Notes: generated by a model from the letters alone, not told the origin. 64,000 nt of DNA from Candidatus Hermodarchaeota archaeon (GCA_048885525.1 JBHLLP010000001.1:1-64000); one strand, 5' to 3'; counted from the first letter of the stretch, positions 6,535-21,323 are shown. Program-made: numbers and translations.

Positions 6535-7470
6535 ATGGATGAAATAGATATTTCCATCTCATTAATGTTATTGGTTAATTCAAGGATACCATACAAAGAA
6601 TTAGCTGAAAAGTTCAATATGAGTGTGAACTCTATTCATAAAAGAGTAAAATCATTAGTAGATCTCGAAGTAATACAAGGATTTAATGCAAAATTAGGAT
6701 TCCCTAATTTTCCAGGAATAACTAATATCTTAATATTTGGTTTTTCAGATTTAAGACAAAAAAAGCAATTGATAAATAAATTAGGAGAAAATGAATGTAT
6801 ATATAATGTTACCCAAGGGAGTGGTAATGCCTTTTATATACATGCATACCTTAGGAATATTAGTGAATTAGACGCCTTGGTGTCATTTATTCGTAAAACA
6901 GGAAATCTTACTGATTTAATTGTTGGAATCGATAAAGATATGCCGCCAATTGCCTTAGAAGAATTAAAAGTTAGACCTCTTACCGATTTAGATTATCTTA
7001 TTATTAAATCATTAAAAGAAAATTCTAGGAAGTCTATCTCTGATATTGCCCTTGAAGTTGGTGCTTCAACAAAAACAATAAGAAGAAGATTAGAACGCTT
7101 AACTGAAAATTTTCTTGTTCAATTTCAAATAGACTGGTATCCTGATAAAACAGGAATAATACCATTAATGATAAACTTAAAATTAGATTCCAGCAAAATT
7201 ATTGATGATAAGGAATTTAAGGAAAAATTAATAAAAGTATTTGGTTCAAAAATTCTAATTACCTGGTCGTTCAGCAACCTACCTAACCTTAAATTTGTTT
7301 TTATATGGGCTCAATCCATGAAAGAACTTCAAGAAATACAAAATTTACTCTTATCTGAGAACTATGAGAAGGTTGATCTAACAATATTGATTGAAGGAAA
7401 AATGTTTCCAACTTGGATTGATACATTTTTAGAAGATAAGGTGAAGGAAATTAAATCTAAATCAAAATAA
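6535..7470 (+). CDS. Tandem (double) Lrp/AsnC-type transcriptional regulator
   Basis: Two HTH-AsnC units: MDEIDISI..NSRIPYKELA..IHKRVKSL and LTDLDYLII..NSRKSISDIA..IRRRLERL. Confidence 0.85.
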   Translation: MDEIDISISLMLLVNSRIPYKELAEKFNMSVNSIHKRVKSLVDLEVIQGFNAKLGFPNFPGITNILIFGFSDLRQKKQLINKLGENECIYNVTQGSGNAFYIHAYLRNISELDALVSFIRKTGNLTDLIVGIDKDMPPIALEELKVRPLTDLDYLIIKSLKENSRKSISDIALEVGASTKTIRRRLERLTENFLVQFQIDWYPDKTGIIPLMINLKLDSSKIIDDKEFKEKLIKVFGSKILITWSFSNLPNLKFVFIWAQSMKELQEIQNLLLSENYEKVDLTILIEGKMFPTWIDTFLEDKVKEIKSKSK

Positions 7471-13899: not shown

Positions 13900-14877
13900 T
13901 CATTTATGATTTTTTTTTATTGTTATTCCAAGGTTAAGATTTTCTACAATTTCACTGAAGCGGTTTCGAACTGTAACTTCGGTCACACAACTAATACGCG
14001 CAATTTTTCTTTGAGTTCTACGCTCATTAGTTAAAATACATGAAGCATAAATTGCTGCTGCGCATACACCTGTGGGCCCTCTTCCAGATGTTAAACCTCG
14101 TTCTTCTGCCTTCCTAATTATAATTTTTGCCATTTTTTGACATTCAGTTGTCAACTCCAATTCTGAAATAAATCTAGTGAGAAAATCCATTGGCTTAGTT
14201 GGATTCAAATTTAAATCTAATTCTTTTGAAATGAATCTGAAAGATCGACCAATCTCTTTCTTATCCACTCTGGCCACTTCAGCAATCTCATTTAATGTAC
14301 GTGGGACTTTATACATTCTACAAGCAGCATATAAACTAGCAGCAGCTACTCCCTCAATACTTCTTCCTCTTATTAAATGTGCTTCAACAGCATCCCGATA
14401 TATTTTAGCTGAACATTCCCGCAAATTTTTCTGAAGATCCAAGTTTGAAGCCATACGATCAAGTTCACTCAAAGCAAAAGTAAGATTTCTTTCGGTTGCA
14501 TCAGATACACGAATACGGCTTTGCCACTTACGAAGCCTATAAATTTGGCCCCTTAATTTAGCAGGTATTTCCTTTCCAAAAATATCTCGGTTTTTCCAAT
14601 CAATCATAGTACTAAGCCCTTTATCATGTATCATATACGTCATAGGAGCTCCAGTACGTGTTCTCTTTTTTTTCTGATCAGCATCAAAAGCTCTCCATTC
14701 CGGTCCACGATCAATGTGTTTCTCAGAATGAACTAGACCACATTGTTCACATACTATTAATCCTCTATTTTCATCAAAAAATATGTTTTCCCCACATTCG
14801 GTACAAATTGCATTTTCATTATTAGCATAATCTTCCAATTCAGCTCTCACTTCTTTCCAATTTGAAATATATCCCAC
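13900..14877 (-). CDS. tfb: Transcription initiation factor IIB
   Basis: CTECG..VCEQCG zinc ribbon, [10 protein letters not shown]-reader, two cyclin repeats ([22 protein letters not shown]). Confidence 0.97.
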
Positions 14878-14921
14878 CTTTTTGAAAAATTTTCTTTTTT
14901 TACAAAAGATCTTTTAAAAAA

Positions 14922-15176
14922 CTAAGCTATTTTAGTGAAATATTTGTCATTAGGGGTAAAGATTTGATTTGGTAATGTTTTAATTGAAATAAAAGGAAGT
15001 TCTATTGGCCCGAAAATATCTTTTATGAATCCAATTTTTTCATATTTTTCATTGAAAAGGGGTTGTTTGAATATTTTTTCTAACTTACTATTCCATTGTT
15101 TCGCTCTAAAAATTTGATGCTTTTTGGCCGATTGTCCAATATAGAATAGATTCAATTTGACCCAATTCTTTTTCAA
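14922..15176 (-). CDS. gar1: H/ACA RNP subunit Gar1/Naf1 family protein
   Basis: KIGFIKDIFGPIELPFISIK motif; conserved position upstream of tfb. Confidence 0.8.
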   Translation of the reverse strand: MKKNWVKLNLFYIGQSAKKHQIFRAKQWNSKLEKIFKQPLFNEKYEKIGFIKDIFGPIELPFISIKTLPNQIFTPNDKYFTKIA

Positions 15177-15328
15177 GAAATCCCCTAGCTGAGTGGATAA
15201 AATTAAAATAAAAGATGGTTGTTAATATTTAAATATAATGGTTTTTGTTTCCCATTCTTACAAAAAGGTAAATTAAGAGATCATTAATCGAAAAAGAAAT
15301 TAGCTATAAACTTTAGATAACAAAATCA

Positions 15329-16429
15329 CTATAAATAATTCTTAGTTAATTGATACTTTTTTTTACACTCACATTCATATTCATTCTTGTCTAAATTGCT
15401 CAAATCCTGAGAGAGGACAAAGTTCTTTAGTCTTTTTTTTGATGAACTCTCACATTCTTTCTTTAAACAATTATGGATCCCTCTTTTTGTTCCAGCCCCA
15501 GAAGGATCAGATAATATTCTCATACCTATTAAATCTTTTTGAGTTAAGGCTTTTTTTAAGCATTTGAATAATGAATAAAACCAAGGAGGTCTATATCGGT
15601 TTTGAAACCATAAATATTCTACGAGTGTTCCTTTTTGTATATTTAATGGATTAATTGAAATTGAATTCACGCCTAGATTCCTTAGTATTTTAATAGAAGT
15701 TGAACAATCATCAATTGCTACTTGTTCATTTATGAAGGGAGGTTTCAATAATAGATAAACCCTTACTCCAATATTGTATTCTTTTAATAGGTTTAAAACA
15801 TCTAAAAACCCTCTAAATAAAATTCCTTTATTAATATAATTATTTCTAATATAATCATTTACAGTTTCAAGCCCTATAGCAATCTCTAAGTATTTTTTAT
15901 CGAAAAATTCTTTAATTTCTTCTAATTTTTCTACAGTTATATATTCTAAACGTGATTCTATAACAAACTCCTTAATTTTTTCTATTTTTGAGATTTTTTC
16001 ATAGATATATTTTCTAGTTTCTTGAGATATTTCATTTTCATCCAAAAAGCTTCCAGAATTGTAGATTTTAAAAATATAATTATCAGAATCTTTCTTAATT
16101 TCATTTATTTTATTATTAAAGGCAATATCAAATTGATTATTAAGAATAGTAGTTGATACGTCTTTATTTATAGCATCTAAATAATATCCGCACATAGAAC
16201 ATCCTCCATATTCACTTAAACCCCAACTGCATCCCTTTGATCGTAAAATAATCGTAAATTCTTTTCCAATTTCATCTATTAGTCTATCTTTTTTAATCCA
16301 GAAACCAATTGGACGCTTAATTACCTCTAACCCATATTGGGGCTTCCTTTTTAAAGATTGTTGTCTAATAGAGTAAATCTTCTCAACAATAGCATTATTA
16401 CTCTCAAAAAGAGTATTATTTCCATTCAT
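15329..16429 (-). CDS. Archaeosine biosynthesis radical SAM protein RaSEA
   Basis: GCSW...GGCSMCGY, KIYNSGSFLD, ESR, GLET, YLLLKPPF, YRPPW, RG.HNC; overlaps arcS. Confidence 0.9.
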   Translation of the reverse strand: MNGNNTLFESNNAIVEKIYSIRQQSLKRKPQYGLEVIKRPIGFWIKKDRLIDEIGKEFTIILRSKGCSWGLSEYGGCSMCGYYLDAINKDVSTTILNNQFDIAFNNKINEIKKDSDNYIFKIYNSGSFLDENEISQETRKYIYEKISKIEKIKEFVIESRLEYITVEKLEEIKEFFDKKYLEIAIGLETVNDYIRNNYINKGILFRGFLDVLNLLKEYNIGVRVYLLLKPPFINEQVAIDDCSTSIKILRNLGVNSISINPLNIQKGTLVEYLWFQNRYRPPWFYSLFKCLKKALTQKDLIGMRILSDPSGAGTKRGIHNCLKKECESSSKKRLKNFVLSQDLSNLDKNEYECECKKKYQLTKNYL

Positions 16430-18497
16430 TTATTTTTACAATTCTCCCACTTTTTGAATTCTTTATAAAATTAGAACCCGTAATTAACACTCCACTTCCT
16501 AAAACTTTTTTCTTTTCTTTATCTAATATCCCTACTTGATTATTCGGAATGAGATTTAAACTATAATCTAACACTCCTGCTCGAAATAATGTGTTTCCTT
16601 GAACTTTATCTCCATCGAATACAATATAATTTGAATTTAAAGACTTATTATATTTAAACAGCCGCTCAAGACCATTAATAGTTAATTCGATTTGTCCAGT
16701 TGTATATTTAAAGACTCCTAATTTTTCTTGAGTTTTTAAGTCCTTCAATTCAACTTGATCACTAATTCTTGTTCGAATCGTTTTTAACCCATTGGAAATG
16801 ATGTTGATGCCTGCATTTATACCAAATTGATAATCTAAGATTTTTATAAATTTCCTTGTCCATGTTTTTAAGTAATTTTCAGCATCTAAATTGATTTTCT
16901 TAGGTTGGAATTTATCCTTAAAATTTGTAATTAAACGTTCTAAAGATTGGAGTGATTTAACAGAAGTTGTATTATCAGAGATTTCAGAGAAGATAAAATT
17001 ATATGGTAATTTAGAAGAGGCTCTTTTTATAATTTCTAGATATTGATTTTTTAAATGGCAAATAATAGGAATGTTTGGATCATATTTTTCTATTAATTTG
17101 ATAAGCATTTTTGATGTAATATTTATTTCTTCACTATCCCATTCGCCTGTTACAGAAATATCGTAAGAATTAACTGGGTAAACATTTTCTAATTGTCTAG
17201 GAATGCACCCGAGAGGAGAAGTTAAAATAAATTCTTGAAAAGTAGGAAATTCTGGAAATTTTCTAATAATATTGTAATACTTTTTATGAGATTTAGATTC
17301 TGAATATGGTTTCTTAGCTGAGCATGGTAATAAAATAATTAATGCTGTCCAAGGTTCAGGTTCAAAATTTTTGATTGCTCGTTCCCTAAACAGCTTGAAA
17401 TCTGGTCTATTATATGATATTGGCCCGTAGGATCTTACTTTTTTAATTTTTTGGCTTATAGGAGTCTCATATTTAATAACATTATAATATTCTTTATCTA
17501 AAATCTTCAACATCGAAATTAAGGTAGTATCATCAAAAGAAGATTTTTCAACAAATGCTCGAAAATCTTCGTAATTCAAGTATTGTTTGGCTTTATTCAT
17601 ATAATTATATGCTGTTATTAGATTATGCAAGCTTAATAAATCAATCTTTTCAGAAGAATATTTATTATTTAACACGTTAGTCAAGTTACCTTTACAGGCT
17701 ACGCATGAACACGGAAGAAATTTTATTTTATAGATCGGTAATAAATATTCTATCGTATCATAGAAATTTTCAGCAGATAAGAACAATAAATATGAAGAAT
17801 CAATAAGGTCTATTCCTAAGTATATTAACATTGGATAATGCTTCGGAATTATTCTTCCAGAAGCCATTATAACTATGTTATTATCTAATTCTAGTTTTAA
17901 TTTAAAGATAATTTTTAAAATATTTCGATAATTGTTCAAATTATCAAAAGCATCAGTTAAATTGACAATTTTTATATTTTCAAATTTCTTAATAATTGGA
18001 ATATAGAGATCTAATAAATCTAAATGTTCAAATATTTTTATAGTTAAACCAAAATTTAGATATTGATGATTTTTTAATATTTCTTTTACAGTAAAAAGAT
18101 AATTTTCTATTTCTCTTTTAGCAAAATTTTTACCAATACTAGTAGTTGGAATATTGAATGGAATAAGTGATATGATATTATCATTGGAAAAGACATTGCT
18201 ATTTTTTATTAATATTTCTTGAAATTTTTCTAGAGAACCAGGATAAGTAAATATAAATCCAGTATTTATGAATTTCTCCCTTATAAAGCCAATTTTCAAG
18301 AAAAATTCTTTAGAAATTGTAAATAGATCATGATTCTCAAATTCTTGAATAAAACTAAATTGCTTCATTAAGGAGCCTTTTATAGGTATAATTATGTTAG
18401 GGGTTGTAATAAATAATTTTCGTTCTTTAGAAAAAATTATTCGCCCTATTCTTGAATAACCAATCTTACTGGATAGAACTTCAAAGAAATAAGTCAT
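16416..18497 (-). CDS. arcS: Archaeosine synthase subunit alpha (TGT-like barrel + PUA)
   Basis: CSCVAC..HNL, LLPCSAKKPYSESKSH, TSPLG.IPRQLE..YP..YDISVTGEW, C-terminal PUA. Confidence 0.9.
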   Translation of the reverse strand: MTYFFEVLSSKIGYSRIGRIIFSKERKLFITTPNIIIPIKGSLMKQFSFIQEFENHDLFTISKEFFLKIGFIREKFINTGFIFTYPGSLEKFQEILIKNSNVFSNDNIISLIPFNIPTTSIGKNFAKREIENYLFTVKEILKNHQYLNFGLTIKIFEHLDLLDLYIPIIKKFENIKIVNLTDAFDNLNNYRNILKIIFKLKLELDNNIVIMASGRIIPKHYPMLIYLGIDLIDSSYLLFLSAENFYDTIEYLLPIYKIKFLPCSCVACKGNLTNVLNNKYSSEKIDLLSLHNLITAYNYMNKAKQYLNYEDFRAFVEKSSFDDTTLISMLKILDKEYYNVIKYETPISQKIKKVRSYGPISYNRPDFKLFRERAIKNFEPEPWTALIILLPCSAKKPYSESKSHKKYYNIIRKFPEFPTFQEFILTSPLGCIPRQLENVYPVNSYDISVTGEWDSEEINITSKMLIKLIEKYDPNIPIICHLKNQYLEIIKRASSKLPYNFIFSEISDNTTSVKSLQSLERLITNFKDKFQPKKINLDAENYLKTWTRKFIKILDYQFGINAGINIISNGLKTIRTRISDQVELKDLKTQEKLGVFKYTTGQIELTINGLERLFKYNKSLNSNYIVFDGDKVQGNTLFRAGVLDYSLNLIPNNQVGILDKEKKKVLGSGVLITGSNFIKNSKSGRIVKINEWK

Positions 18498-18652: not shown

Positions 18653-19936
18653 CTAAAAAATTAAGAAATTAACATATGGTTTTAACTCATCTAAAACAAA
18701 ATTTGTATACGTATCCTCTATTTCTTCTGAACTATATAGATCTCTTATAAAAGCTGCATAGTCTTCAATTTTTTTTACTCTTACAATTGCAAATAAGCCA
18801 TATTGTTCTCCTATTCGAAATAGATCAGTGATATTATTGTTCATATCCAATCTAAGCGCAAGCTCATTGTATTTTGAGGGATCTTTTGGTTTTATTCGAA
18901 GGAGATATTTTCCCTCAAAACCAATCTTTTTCGGGAAAAAATTTACGCAGTAATTTAAAATTACTCCCTGTGTTTCAAGTCTTTTTATTCTATTATGAAT
19001 AGTTGATTGTGAAATCTCTGTTTTATGTTGTTCTTTAAAAATTTTACTTATTTCATAAGTGGATATTGGTTTAAGATTTTGGCTATCTCTTAGTATACTT
19101 AGAATTATATAATCAATAGTATCTATTTCAAAATTTGGATCAAATTTTTTTTTGTCTAATTTTACTCCAATTTTTCCCAAATTTCTAATAATTTGATTTT
19201 TTATAATTTTTTTTTTCGGAACATTCTTTAAACCATTAATTACCATTTTTCCATTAGAAAAAATTAAAATTGTTATAGGAGAATTTTCAATCTTCAAAAC
19301 CAGACCTGGAAATTTTTCAGGTTTATATTCAATATCCTCATTATTTTGAGCAATTTGATTTAAATCTAATTTTCCTTGAATTTCGATTTCAATATTTTCA
19401 TTAGATATACTAATTAATTGGTCTAATAATTCTTCCTCAAAAGTCATTTTTGATTTTCTTAAACTAATTCCATTAGTTTTAAAAACTTTAATAGTCTCAA
19501 TGATTTGATACTTTTTAAAATAAGATTTAGCCATTATTTGATCTATTGTGTTTAATATTTGATAATATTCTTTGGGAGATTTAAAGATAAACAAGGCAAA
19601 TAAAGAAAAATCCCCTATTATTCCATCCAACATTCTTAATTGGGGAATTTCTAATAATTTTTTGACTAACTCAGGTTCTTTAGGATTAGTTTTAATTTCA
19701 AGCATCACAAATTTCAAATTATTCGGCCTAATATTTGGATTAATGTTGATTGTGAAATTTGTAATTATTTTTTGATCTCTCAAAACATCAAGTTTATTTT
19801 GAAATGTTTGTCTTGAGAGTCCTATCGTACGGGATTTTTTAGAAACAATAAATTTGGTCTTTCCACTTAAATTTTTTATAAATCTTTGGACTTCTACCAG
19901 ATCATTAATGGAACTCATTTTAATACAATTTTGCAA
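18653..19936 (-). CDS. Tandem Lrp/AsnC regulator with an inserted TATA-binding-protein repeat
   Basis: HTH-RAM + LDLNQIA..EYKPEKFPGLVLKI..ILIFSNGKMVINGLK..LGKIGVK + HTH-RAM; probable start ATG 19918. Confidence 0.8.
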   Translation of the reverse strand: MQNCIKMSSINDLVEVQRFIKNLSGKTKFIVSKKSRTIGLSRQTFQNKLDVLRDQKIITNFTININPNIRPNNLKFVMLEIKTNPKEPELVKKLLEIPQLRMLDGIIGDFSLFALFIFKSPKEYYQILNTIDQIMAKSYFKKYQIIETIKVFKTNGISLRKSKMTFEEELLDQLISISNENIEIEIQGKLDLNQIAQNNEDIEYKPEKFPGLVLKIENSPITILIFSNGKMVINGLKNVPKKKIIKNQIIRNLGKIGVKLDKKKFDPNFEIDTIDYIILSILRDSQNLKPISTYEISKIFKEQHKTEISQSTIHNRIKRLETQGVILNYCVNFFPKKIGFEGKYLLRIKPKDPSKYNELALRLDMNNNITDLFRIGEQYGLFAIVRVKKIEDYAAFIRDLYSSEEIEDTYTNFVLDELKPYVNFLIF

Positions 19937-20045
19937 ATTTTTTAATTTCTATTAATTAATTGTTAAATTATATTTATAAATATTTGCATTTAACCAAAAA
20001 AAGGTTTATTAATTAATTAAAATTAATATTCTTACAAAAAAGAAT

Positions 20046-21323
20046 GTGATTTTTATGGTTAAATATAAAGTAGCAGATGAAAATTTAGCTCAGCAAGGAA
20101 AAGAAGCACTTTATATTGCGGAAAGTAAAATGCCTGTCACTGCAAAGGTTATTCGTGAAAGATTTCAGAAGGAGAAACCATTAAAAGGAACAATTATTGC
20201 TGGTTGTTTACATATAACAAAAGAGACAGGTAATTTGGCTCGGACTCTTAAAGCTGGTGGGGCTGAGGTCTATTTATGTGGTAGTAATCCATTATCAACA
20301 CAAGATGACGTAGCAGCAGCATTAGTACAAGAAGGAATTAATGTTTTTGCTTGGCATGGTAATACAGACGAAGAATTCTATTGGTGTATAAAACAATGTT
20401 TAAATGTTAAACCAAATATCTTAATTGATGATGGAGCAGATATGATTGTTACTGCTCATCAAGAATATGAAAATCTAATAAATTCAGGAACTATTATTGC
20501 ATGTCAAGAAGAAACAACAACGGGAGTAAAAAGATTTAAAGCGATGGATAAACAAGGAGTCTTGAAAGTGCCGCTTTTCCCAGTTAATGATGCTCGATGT
20601 AAGAATCAGTTTGATAATGAATTGGGTACTGGTCAGGGTATAGTTTCTGCAATTTATGGAATGCATGTTCTTTTTGCAGGTAAGAACGTTGTTATCGCTG
20701 GTTATGGTCATTGCAGTTCAGGTATGGCACTCAGAGCAAGAGGTTTAGGTGCCAACGTAACTGTCACAGAAGTAGATCCAATAAAAGCATTACAAGCCAT
20801 ATTTGCTGGATTTTCAGTCAAACCGATTGAAGATACTTTAACTTATGCTGATATTATCTTAACAGCTACAGGTTGTAAGCATGTTATTCCTCCAAAGCCA
20901 GAAATATTTGAGAAATTCAAAGATGGAATTGTACTTGGAAATCTTGGTCATTTTGATATTGAAATTCCAACTAAACAACTCTATGAATATTCAAAAGTAA
21001 TCAAACCGATTCGTCAAAATGTAGAAGAACTAATTTTTCCTAGCGGTAAGAAAGTTTATCTTCTAGCTAAAGGGCGTTTAGCTAATCTTGTATTATCAGA
21101 AGGGCACCCTAGTGAAGTTATGGATATGTCTTTTGCCTTACAGTCATTAATGTCTGAATATATTGTAAATAATAAGGATTCTTTTAAGCCAGGAATTATA
21201 GAGGTTCCAGCCGAAATTGATGACAAAGTAGGTTATTTAAAACTTCAATCTATGGGTATAGAAATTGATACTTTAACTCAAGAGCAATATAACTATATTC
21301 ACGGCTACGAAGAAGGAACTTAA
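20046..21323 (+). CDS. ahcY: S-adenosylhomocysteine hydrolase
   Basis: GCLHITKET, SNPLSTQDDVAA, EETTTG, K..FDN, GHFD.EI, GRL.NL..EGHPSEVMDMSF. Confidence 0.97.
   Translation: MIFMVKYKVADENLAQQGKEALYIAESKMPVTAKVIRERFQKEKPLKGTIIAGCLHITKETGNLARTLKAGGAEVYLCGSNPLSTQDDVAAALVQEGINVFAWHGNTDEEFYWCIKQCLNVKPNILIDDGADMIVTAHQEYENLINSGTIIACQEETTTGVKRFKAMDKQGVLKVPLFPVNDARCKNQFDNELGTGQGIVSAIYGMHVLFAGKNVVIAGYGHCSSGMALRARGLGANVTVTEVDPIKALQAIFAGFSVKPIEDTLTYADIILTATGCKHVIPPKPEIFEKFKDGIVLGNLGHFDIEIPTKQLYEYSKVIKPIRQNVEELIFPSGKKVYLLAKGRLANLVLSEGHPSEVMDMSFALQSLMSEYIVNNKDSFKPGIIEVPAEIDDKVGYLKLQSMGIEIDTLTQEQYNYIHGYEEGT

Follow-up and report, generated by a model that had tools for sequence, protein, structure and literature searches.

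A tandem Lrp/AsnC regulator of Asgard archaea with a single TBP lobe embedded between its two modules

Introduction

What is a single lobe of the TATA-binding protein (TBP) doing inside a gene-specific regulator? The question is raised by a long minus-strand ORF at 18653-19936 in the 64-kb window, which is the whole stretch of DNA analysed here. An earlier note, made from the sequence, had read this ORF as an Lrp/AsnC protein with half a TBP between two HTH-RAM modules, and had proposed that two such halves might pair into a ligand-controlled pseudo-TBP or that the half might act as a decoy. TBP is believed to descend from a single lobe that was duplicated. The capability of a single lobe of TBP proper is poorly known, and the regulator is a natural construct of one. 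No description of a TBP lobe inside an Lrp/AsnC protein was found in the literature searched, which agrees with the remark in the note that its author knew of no such description. Here, the identity and origin of the lobe, its distribution, its genomic setting and the selection acting on it are examined, and the possible roles are weighed.

Results

Layout of the regulator

The protein encoded at 18653-19936 on the minus strand consists of a RAM module with a putative wHTH, one TBP repeat and a second RAM module with a probable wHTH. The layout given in the earlier note was thus confirmed, with PF00352 (TBP) lying between two stretches of the RAM domain PF01037 (E = 3.2e-11, 43.4 bits against a cut-off of 25), one stretch in each module. 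Since orthologues begin at the Met encoded at 19918 and some have a stop codon just upstream, ATG 19918 (residue 7 of the ORF) is probably the true start. The features of the gene are as follows.

18653..19918, minus strand: tandem Lrp/AsnC regulator gene that contains the TBP lobe; translation from ATG 19918 gives 421 aa, and the frame stays open as far upstream as TTG 19936
19457..19918, minus strand: N-terminal Lrp-like module (wHTH 1 and RAM 1), aa 7-160, with the first PF01037 stretch
19409..19456, minus strand: acidic helical linker of variable length before the lobe, aa 161-176, a helix in both models
19151..19408, minus strand: single TBP repeat (S1-H1-S2-stirrup-S3-S4-S5-H2), aa 177-262, assigned below to the N-terminal repeat of the host TBP
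19121..19150, minus strand: basic linker after the lobe, aa 263-272, pLDDT below 50 in the model
18656..19120, minus strand: C-terminal Lrp/AsnC module (wHTH 2 and RAM 2), aa 273-427, with PF01037 at aa 352-416

The N-terminal module was modelled as three helices followed by a beta-alpha-beta-beta-alpha-beta arrangement. Its HTH gave only faint Pfam matches; in the alignment of 95 family sequences, its putative recognition helix is near-invariant and the mean column entropy of the whole module is 0.54. For the C-terminal module, NCBIfam LysM/Lrp/AsnC models align over aa 265-420, the HTH matches HTH_24 under the cut-off (E = 6.9e-4), and the structural matches in Foldseek are FL11, AsnC and LrpA (E about 1e-7 to 1e-8). 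The acidic helix ahead of the lobe is present in most members, variable or absent in others and missing in the short variants. The full-length model (pLDDT 63.6, pTM 0.40) is too uncertain to place the lobe relative to the HTH domains; the best Foldseek matches of this weak model were FL11/PH1519, AsnC and LrpA. The paralogue at 6535-7470 is, by Pfam, a tandem Lrp protein without the insert, as had been noted earlier.

The insert is a TBP lobe derived from the N-terminal repeat

The assignment of the insert to TBP stood up in the profile comparison: PF00352 matches aa 176-254 over profile positions 3-83 of 85 (E = 2.5e-17, 62.9 bits against a cut-off of 22.9). NCBIfam TBP models also match the middle of the regulator, and the closest solved relatives of the lobe by sequence are archaeal TBPs (E about 1e-23 for 1mp9). 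The model of the isolated insert (pLDDT 76, pTM 0.68) shows the order helix, S1, H1, three further strands and H2. DSSP assigned an extra two-residue bridge ahead of the stirrup in this model. When the model was compared with the PDB using Foldseek, the top 44 matches were all TBPs (E about 1e-6), and 1mp9 was superposed with a TMq of 0.63 and an rmsd of 2.9 Å over 86 columns, while OGG1 and RNase HIII reached an E-value of only 0.14-0.2. The insert is therefore predicted to fold as a saddle half, and its derivation from TBP proper, not from the remote domains of the RNase HIII/AlkA type, was borne out.

A genome-wide repeat scan (assembly of 3.58 Mb, 99% complete) found five TBP repeats. Four of them make up two ordinary two-lobed TBP genes on other contigs, and the fifth is the lobe in the regulator (19172-19411, minus strand); a stand-alone second TBP lobe was looked for across the genome by the same scan and none was found. 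Since the five repeats are accounted for by two complete TBPs and one lobe, there is no separate 'other half' in the genome. With one repeat per protein, the regulator lacks the saddle of two tandem repeats that TBP has.

In phmmer, the host TBP (contig C41) matched the insert with 77 bits through its N repeat and with 33 bits through its C repeat. When TBP half-domains were placed in a tree, the inserts grouped in a single clade (SH-aLRT 97) among the N repeats, beside the host's own N repeat, and the stirrup motif of the lobe has the N-repeat form. Judged from these scores and the tree, the lobe is a derivative of the N-terminal repeat of the organism's own TBP. The inserts are now 37-63% identical to the parent TBP lobe. 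The C stirrup of TBP is the part that binds TFB/TFIIB, as seen in TBP-TFIIB/TFB structures, and the lobe, being of N-repeat type by bits and by tree, does not have this docking stirrup. The suggestion in the earlier note that the half may act as a TFB decoy is thus not supported, the lobe bearing an N-type stirrup and no TFB signature of the C stirrup, and such a role appears unlikely.

In TBP, the Asn and Val in contact with the central base pairs lie in the first half of S1, a stretch that also forms the dyad with the other lobe. In the orthologue G003, the residues that open S1 in the parent are still present, and a deletion of four residues comes after them. Because these parental residues are retained, the homology register can be set as N181 = yeast N69, E183 = V71 and E185 = an ancestral Glu. 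An initial view that the underside of S1 had 'turned acidic' was dropped on this basis, as E185 was inherited from the parent, which leaves E183 as the one Glu in place of a DNA-contact Val. The short-linker variants were likewise discarded as candidates for the ancestral form, since G003 points to the long form as the ancestor, from which the short ones arose by partial deletion. Prediction of a complex of two lobe copies, based on the family alignment, reached a score of 0.01, the mark being 0.42; it was run with no controls and is evidence neither way.

The fusion is confined to one Asgard family among the genomes searched

A search of about 5.8 billion proteins returned about 95 clusters (90% identity) of 400-445 aa that carry PF01037 together with PF00352. 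They came from JGI, ENA, NCBI and Logan assemblies and were all labelled Asgard. When species-representative genomes were searched, one regulator gene was found per genome, and the insert was present in 37 of the 126 species genomes with a match, all belonging to one GTDB family (Asgard, Lokiarchaeia-type). By genus, the insert-bearing genomes were distributed as follows.

Genus g1: 24/53
Genus g22: 10/42
Genus g12: 1/5
Genus g15: 1/6
Genus g19: 1/1

The other genomes of the 126 have a gene of about 320 aa that is without exactly the middle part. The possibility that the orthologues would all lack the insert, which the earlier note had named as fatal to its reading, was thus dispelled. A junction-spanning query against 266 genomes from 32 other families of the phylum found none with the fusion.

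Since the same architecture recurs across independent assemblies, an assembly chimera is ruled out. More broadly, the chance that assembly or binning joined a TBP fragment to an Lrp gene is negligible, given the same in-frame layout in the clusters and the 37 species genomes, the co-linear neighbours, and the divergence of the insert from TBP. Two proteins at first taken as stand-alone half-TBPs (P0203 and P0207) resemble truncated or frameshifted ordinary TBPs and were set aside.

The regulator is paired with ahcY irrespective of the lobe

The neighbours of the regulator and the region between the divergent genes are as follows.

20055..21323, plus strand: ahcY (S-adenosyl-L-homocysteine hydrolase; Pfam PF05221/PF00670), divergent neighbour
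19919..20054: divergent control region of 136 bp, common to the regulator and ahcY, highly conserved in the genus
16416..18497, minus strand: arcS-like gene (TGT and DUF5591), downstream on the same strand as the regulator

At 87 of 89 loci, the regulator and ahcY are divergently arranged, whether the lobe is present or not. Among the loci are those of six genomes belonging to three further families of the order, in which the tandem Lrp lacks the lobe. Since the divergent pairing is kept in this way even in three lobe-free families, the regulator appears to be an old local regulator of ahcY, and ahcY is its likely target. In the control region, putative TATA-like boxes, picked by eye only, lie at about 19972-19981 (regulator, minus strand) and 20005-20012 (ahcY). 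When the control regions of 127-150 bp from 22 species of the genus were compared, no element that tracks the insert was found, and those of species that have secondarily lost the insert (see below) resemble those of their insert-bearing sisters.

The genes that follow the regulator on the same strand are arcS, a radical-SAM gene, gar1 and tfb; arcS is downstream in 62 of the 89 loci. Of the two sets of targets that the earlier note had named, ahcY is supported, as a likely target, by the pairing conserved across the order. The arcS-raSEA-gar1-tfb genes are indeed present, but insert-free relatives have the same arrangement. A functional link between the lobe and tfb, four genes downstream, was considered and dropped for the same reason, the arcS cluster lying also downstream of insert-free regulators.

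The lobe was gained, lost and apparently passed between genera

In trees built from the flanks only, the insert-bearing clade was supported at 92/85 and its crown at 99/98 (30 sequences), and the clade was supported at 94 with 89 sequences. The clade that holds all insert-bearing genes together with nine insert-free genes nests among insert-free genes. The fewest changes required by this topology are one gain and two losses; at least two losses are thus indicated, and they are clean. The nested insert-free genes have the insert-type left border and not the linker of primitively insert-free genes, and in the codon alignment the secondary insert-free genes join exactly at the left copy of a short direct repeat (T-TTT-GA).

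19437..19442, minus strand: left copy of the direct repeat at the insert border
19128..19133, minus strand: right copy of the same repeat at the insert border

The direct repeat gives a microhomology of 7-8 nt common to both borders. Loss by slippage or by microhomology deletion would fit both the repeat and the insert-type left border.

Within the insert-bearing clade, which spans five genera, the genera are intermixed, with g22 regulators nesting among g1 genes; the deep nodes of the gene tree are weak. The arcS genes of g22 genomes are 62-65% identical to the arcS of the window, like those of the rest of g22, while those of g1 species are 66-86% identical. Since the genera mix in the regulator clade while g22 arcS diverges like its genus, these observations suggest that the insert-bearing allele moved between genera by replacement.

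Selection retains the outer face of the lobe

Between insert-bearing orthologues, dN/dS (Nei-Gojobori, NG86) was 0.28-0.37 for the insert and about 0.10 for the flanks, from which the insert is judged to be under constraint, about three times less than the flanks. The true TBP N lobe of this genome is 95-100% identical to those of five congeners, whose inserts are 40-60% identical to its insert, and the rate of the lobe is more than ten times that of the true TBP lobe. This difference in identity indicates that nearly all of the constraint of a working TBP has been lifted from the lobe. Its dN/dS of about 0.3 does not show the very strong purifying selection expected of a general factor.

The remaining constraint is unevenly distributed over the lobe, as seen in the alignment of 95 sequences.

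Stirrup: mean entropy 0.81, class conservation 0.89
Equivalents of TBP outer DNA contacts: mean entropy 1.30, class conservation 0.91
Buried sheet positions of the insert: mean entropy 1.44, class conservation 0.94
Underside of S1: mean entropy 2.23, class conservation 0.51
Helix H2 of the insert: mean entropy 2.29, class conservation 0.63

The exposed outer-contact positions are thus conserved on a par with the buried core, and H2 and the underside of S1 less so. Both Phe residues described in the earlier note are present, F209 in the stirrup and F226 as the second. The equivalent of the first (yeast F99) is Phe in 95/95 sequences and that of the second (yeast F116) in 82/95. Among the basic positions, Lys or Arg is found at the equivalents of yeast R98 in 92/95, R105 in 79/95 and K120 in 87/95; the L114 equivalent is aliphatic in 88/95 and the V122 equivalent is Val or Ile in 83/95. 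The strand-1 Asn, which had been reported as kept, is kept in this protein (N181) but not across the family, the equivalent of yeast N69 being Asn in just 38/95. The yeast-V71 equivalent is Glu in 49/95 (E183 in this protein), and the first half of S1 is deleted in about 19/95. The lobe hence retains the outer contacts but not the full set of TBP DNA contacts with the central Asn and Val of S1. By these measures, selection retains the stirrup, together with the Phe pair, aliphatics and Lys/Arg in the outer half of the concave underside, and not the central strand.

Discussion

The role that we tentatively favour, with a confidence just short of even, is that the lobe serves as an optional, flexibly tethered accessory contact with the DNA minor groove on a local regulator of ahcY. 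We infer that the ligand of the concave face is DNA, which is the most economical choice since the conserved positions are the DNA-contact set, including the phosphate-binding Lys/Arg, and since the lobe of RNase H3 acts likewise. An accessory role is suggested because the outer concave face is under selection while the strand pairing with a second lobe is not. The regulator would be a ligand-responsive double Lrp/AsnC protein whose modules, with their differing recognition helices, form a pseudo-dimer within the one chain; it would control the divergent ahcY promoter and probably its own. In an ancestor within the family, a copy of the N lobe of the host TBP, with a few upstream residues, was inserted in the linker of roughly 10 residues that leads from RAM 1 to wHTH 2. 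The lobe would occupy, or put a kink in, the minor groove of AT-rich DNA next to the operator and may overlap one of the two flanking TATA boxes; this contact could tune the affinity of the regulator, DNA bending or competition with TBP. An accessory contact fits best with a folded lobe that has a selected stirrup and outer face, a variable dyad strand and long flexible linkers, and that is dispensable. Counting against contact with DNA are the central contacts that are not kept, the control region that does not change with the lobe and the dispensability of the lobe in close relatives.

The conserved exposed hydrophobics of the lobe could equally mark a protein-protein or intramolecular interface. 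A protein-contact module, whose stirrup and concave face bind the RAM surface of the same protein, free TBP, TFB or RNA polymerase, is possible though unlikely; its variants include a fossilised or autoinhibitory copy of an Lrp-TBP contact as in Ptr2, and dimerisation of the concave face with free TBP. The mechanism of Ptr2-type archaeal Lrp activators involves contact with TBP through surface residues of the RAM domain (PMC2995911), and the fusion could therefore be a fossil of that contact. The exposed hydrophobics are conserved where the central DNA contacts are not, and most members have the acidic helix ahead of the lobe, both of which would suit a protein partner. Such a partner is harder to reconcile with a conserved set that is precisely that of the DNA contacts, the Lys/Arg phosphate contacts included, or with an N-type stirrup in place of the TFB-binding C stirrup; short variants do without the acidic linker helix, and no partner gene restricted to insert-bearing genomes lies nearby. 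It seems rather improbable that the lobe is a near-neutral passenger in a permissive linker, kept folded and in frame only so that the essential C-terminal module is made. A passenger would be optional and cleanly lost, as the lobe is in the 126 family genomes, would vary in length (99 to 131 aa across the family), would evolve fast, here at three times the rate of the flanks, and would leave the promoter unchanged. It would not be expected to show a dN/dS well under 1 or to conserve solvent-exposed Phe and basic positions like the core, nor would its allele be expected to have spread, as it apparently has, to five genera, or the same lobe to be captured independently by a second protein family.

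The pairing of two halves proposed in the earlier note was not upheld. A private pseudo-TBP, in which oligomerisation pairs two lobes into a TATA-binding saddle that recruits TFB and provides a ligand-controlled bypass of, or competition with, TBP, is very unlikely. Lrp proteins do oligomerise (PMC2995911), the lobe retains its stirrup, its basic residues and Phe at both positions, and two TATA-like boxes (by eye) flank the probable operator. Against these points, no stretch of the lobe is less conserved than the first half of S1, which forms the dyad in TBP, and about a fifth of the members have lost it. Two identical lobes, once paired, would have stirrups of N type only and would offer TFB no C stirrup, and the genome holds two complete TBP genes and no separate C lobe. 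Besides, the lobe evolves far faster than TBP and was lost repeatedly, at least twice, with no compensating change in the promoter. We give a similarly slim chance to effector-driven oligomerisation that would bring two lobes, or the lobe and a lobe of free TBP, together on a TATA-like element next to the operator and so nucleate or block the pre-initiation complex; if true, a gene-specific regulator would have part of the general machinery built into it, and the protein would show a half-TBP at work in a living organism. Since the lobe is optional and fast-evolving, an accessory contact with DNA or protein is likelier than a private TBP.

Whichever contact the lobe makes, it is a young and well-dated copy of the N lobe of TBP, joined to a sequence-specific regulator in the archaea most closely related to eukaryotes. 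The dozens of natural variants, together with clean deletions of the lobe in close species, amount to near-isogenic pairs for tests of a half-TBP. Such pairs address whether half a TBP can bind or bend DNA, compete with TBP or contact the RAM surface of an Lrp protein. The analysis also assigns a probable local regulator to ahcY, a gene of the methyl cycle, across a whole Asgard order.

Comparison with known systems

The regulator shares the RAM domains, and probably the wHTH domains, with archaeal Lrp/AsnC proteins (FL11/PH1519, 2cyy and 2e1c; Pyrococcus furiosus LrpA, 1i1g; Ptr2, LysM and Ss-LrpB) and, like them, appears to have a local divergent target. It differs from them in having two modules in one chain, with different recognition helices, and a TBP lobe in the linker between the modules. 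With archaeal TBPs (Sulfolobus acidocaldarius 1mp9, Methanocaldococcus jannaschii 2z8u, Pyrococcus woesei 1pcz/1ais and the host TBP on contig C41), the lobe shares the repeat fold, the stirrup, the Phe pair and the basic contacts. Unlike these TBPs, it is one repeat with unconserved central S1 contacts, an N-type stirrup and no C-stirrup site for TFB, and it is optional. The protein is thus an Lrp/AsnC regulator with a captured TBP lobe and does not qualify as a TBP.

Single TBP-type domains outside a two-lobed TBP have been described by Brindefalk et al. 2013 (PMC3597702) as monopartite TBP-domain proteins of Euryarchaeota, among them Halobacterium TbpA; copies of the TbpA type are recent derivatives of the host TBP. 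Those proteins are small and stand-alone (under about 150 aa), whereas the lobe described here lies inside a three-part regulator of 421 aa, and an Lrp fusion is not listed in that survey. The N-domains of RNase HIII and AlkA/OGG1 resemble the present case as single TBP-like accessory lobes on nucleic-acid-binding proteins. RNase H3 offers the closest functional analogy: with its exposed sheet, its monopartite TBP-like N-domain binds across the minor groove, and it increases binding of the substrate (PMC4132731). The resemblance is one of function only, as these domains are ancient and very remote in sequence while the lobe of the regulator is a young copy of TBP.

The nearest parallel within the same archaeal group is a second Asgard family (P0191 and relatives), which carries an optional C-terminal TBP N lobe. 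Its members are about 317-320 aa with the lobe (about 57 clusters) and about 220 aa without it (many clusters); the genome studied here has lobe-free paralogues of this type only. The two families share the N-repeat-type lobe and its polymorphism of presence and absence. They differ in that the host protein of the P0191-like family has no Pfam family and carries the lobe at its C-terminus, not internally. Because this second protein family captured the same lobe, the comparison suggests that a piece of the general transcription machinery has been reused as a portable module.

Control region and neighbouring genes

The region between the regulator and the divergently transcribed ahcY (19919-20054) was conserved nearly base for base throughout the genus. 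An AACC-A7-GGTT inverted repeat immediately precedes the putative TATA box of ahcY, and the region also contains a pair of TTTGCA motifs spaced ca. 50 bp apart. The inverted repeat and the TTTGCA pair may represent the operator. Downstream of the regulator, the following genes lie on the same strand.

13900-18497, (-): arcS-like gene (TGT+DUF5591), radical-SAM protein gene, gar1 and tfb

Together with ahcY, these genes lend the neighbourhood a SAM/methyl-cycle flavour. arcS was also found downstream of regulators that carry no insert.

Possible exchange of regulator alleles

In the regulator gene tree, GTDB genera of the family were intermixed (loci L048-L063, from g22, g12, g15 and g19). Unlike this mixed tree, the divergence of the g22 arcS located beside the regulator matched that of the rest of g22. 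These observations suggest that regulator alleles have been exchanged within the family.

Related proteins

The window encodes a second tandem Lrp-like protein.

6535-7470, (+): 311 aa, two AsnC-type HTH domains, LysM/LrpA-like across two stretches

This protein has no insert, and its identity with the regulator (18653-19918) was only 22%. The genome carries two TBP genes.

G000:C41:14111-14791 (locus L001/L099): main TBP, parent of the insert, outside the window
Contig C2, 89010-89561: second TBP paralogue, shorter than the main TBP

Ahead of its first repeat, the main TBP has a long, strongly acidic N-terminal extension of ca. 35 aa that is rich in Asp, Glu and Phe.

Outside the window, a second Asgard protein family showed the same presence/absence polymorphism of the lobe as the regulator. 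Its core of ca. 220 aa belongs to no Pfam family, and a single C-terminal TBP repeat of the N-type was present in ca. 57 clusters (members P0191 and P0273-P0327) and absent from many others (P0328 onward). The paralogues in this genome were all lobe-free (e.g. G000:C14:20404-20901).

Three metagenomic proteins from the representative search carry, according to Pfam, more consecutive TBP repeats than the usual two: four in P0123 (376 aa) and three each in P0124 (272 aa) and P0185 (329 aa).
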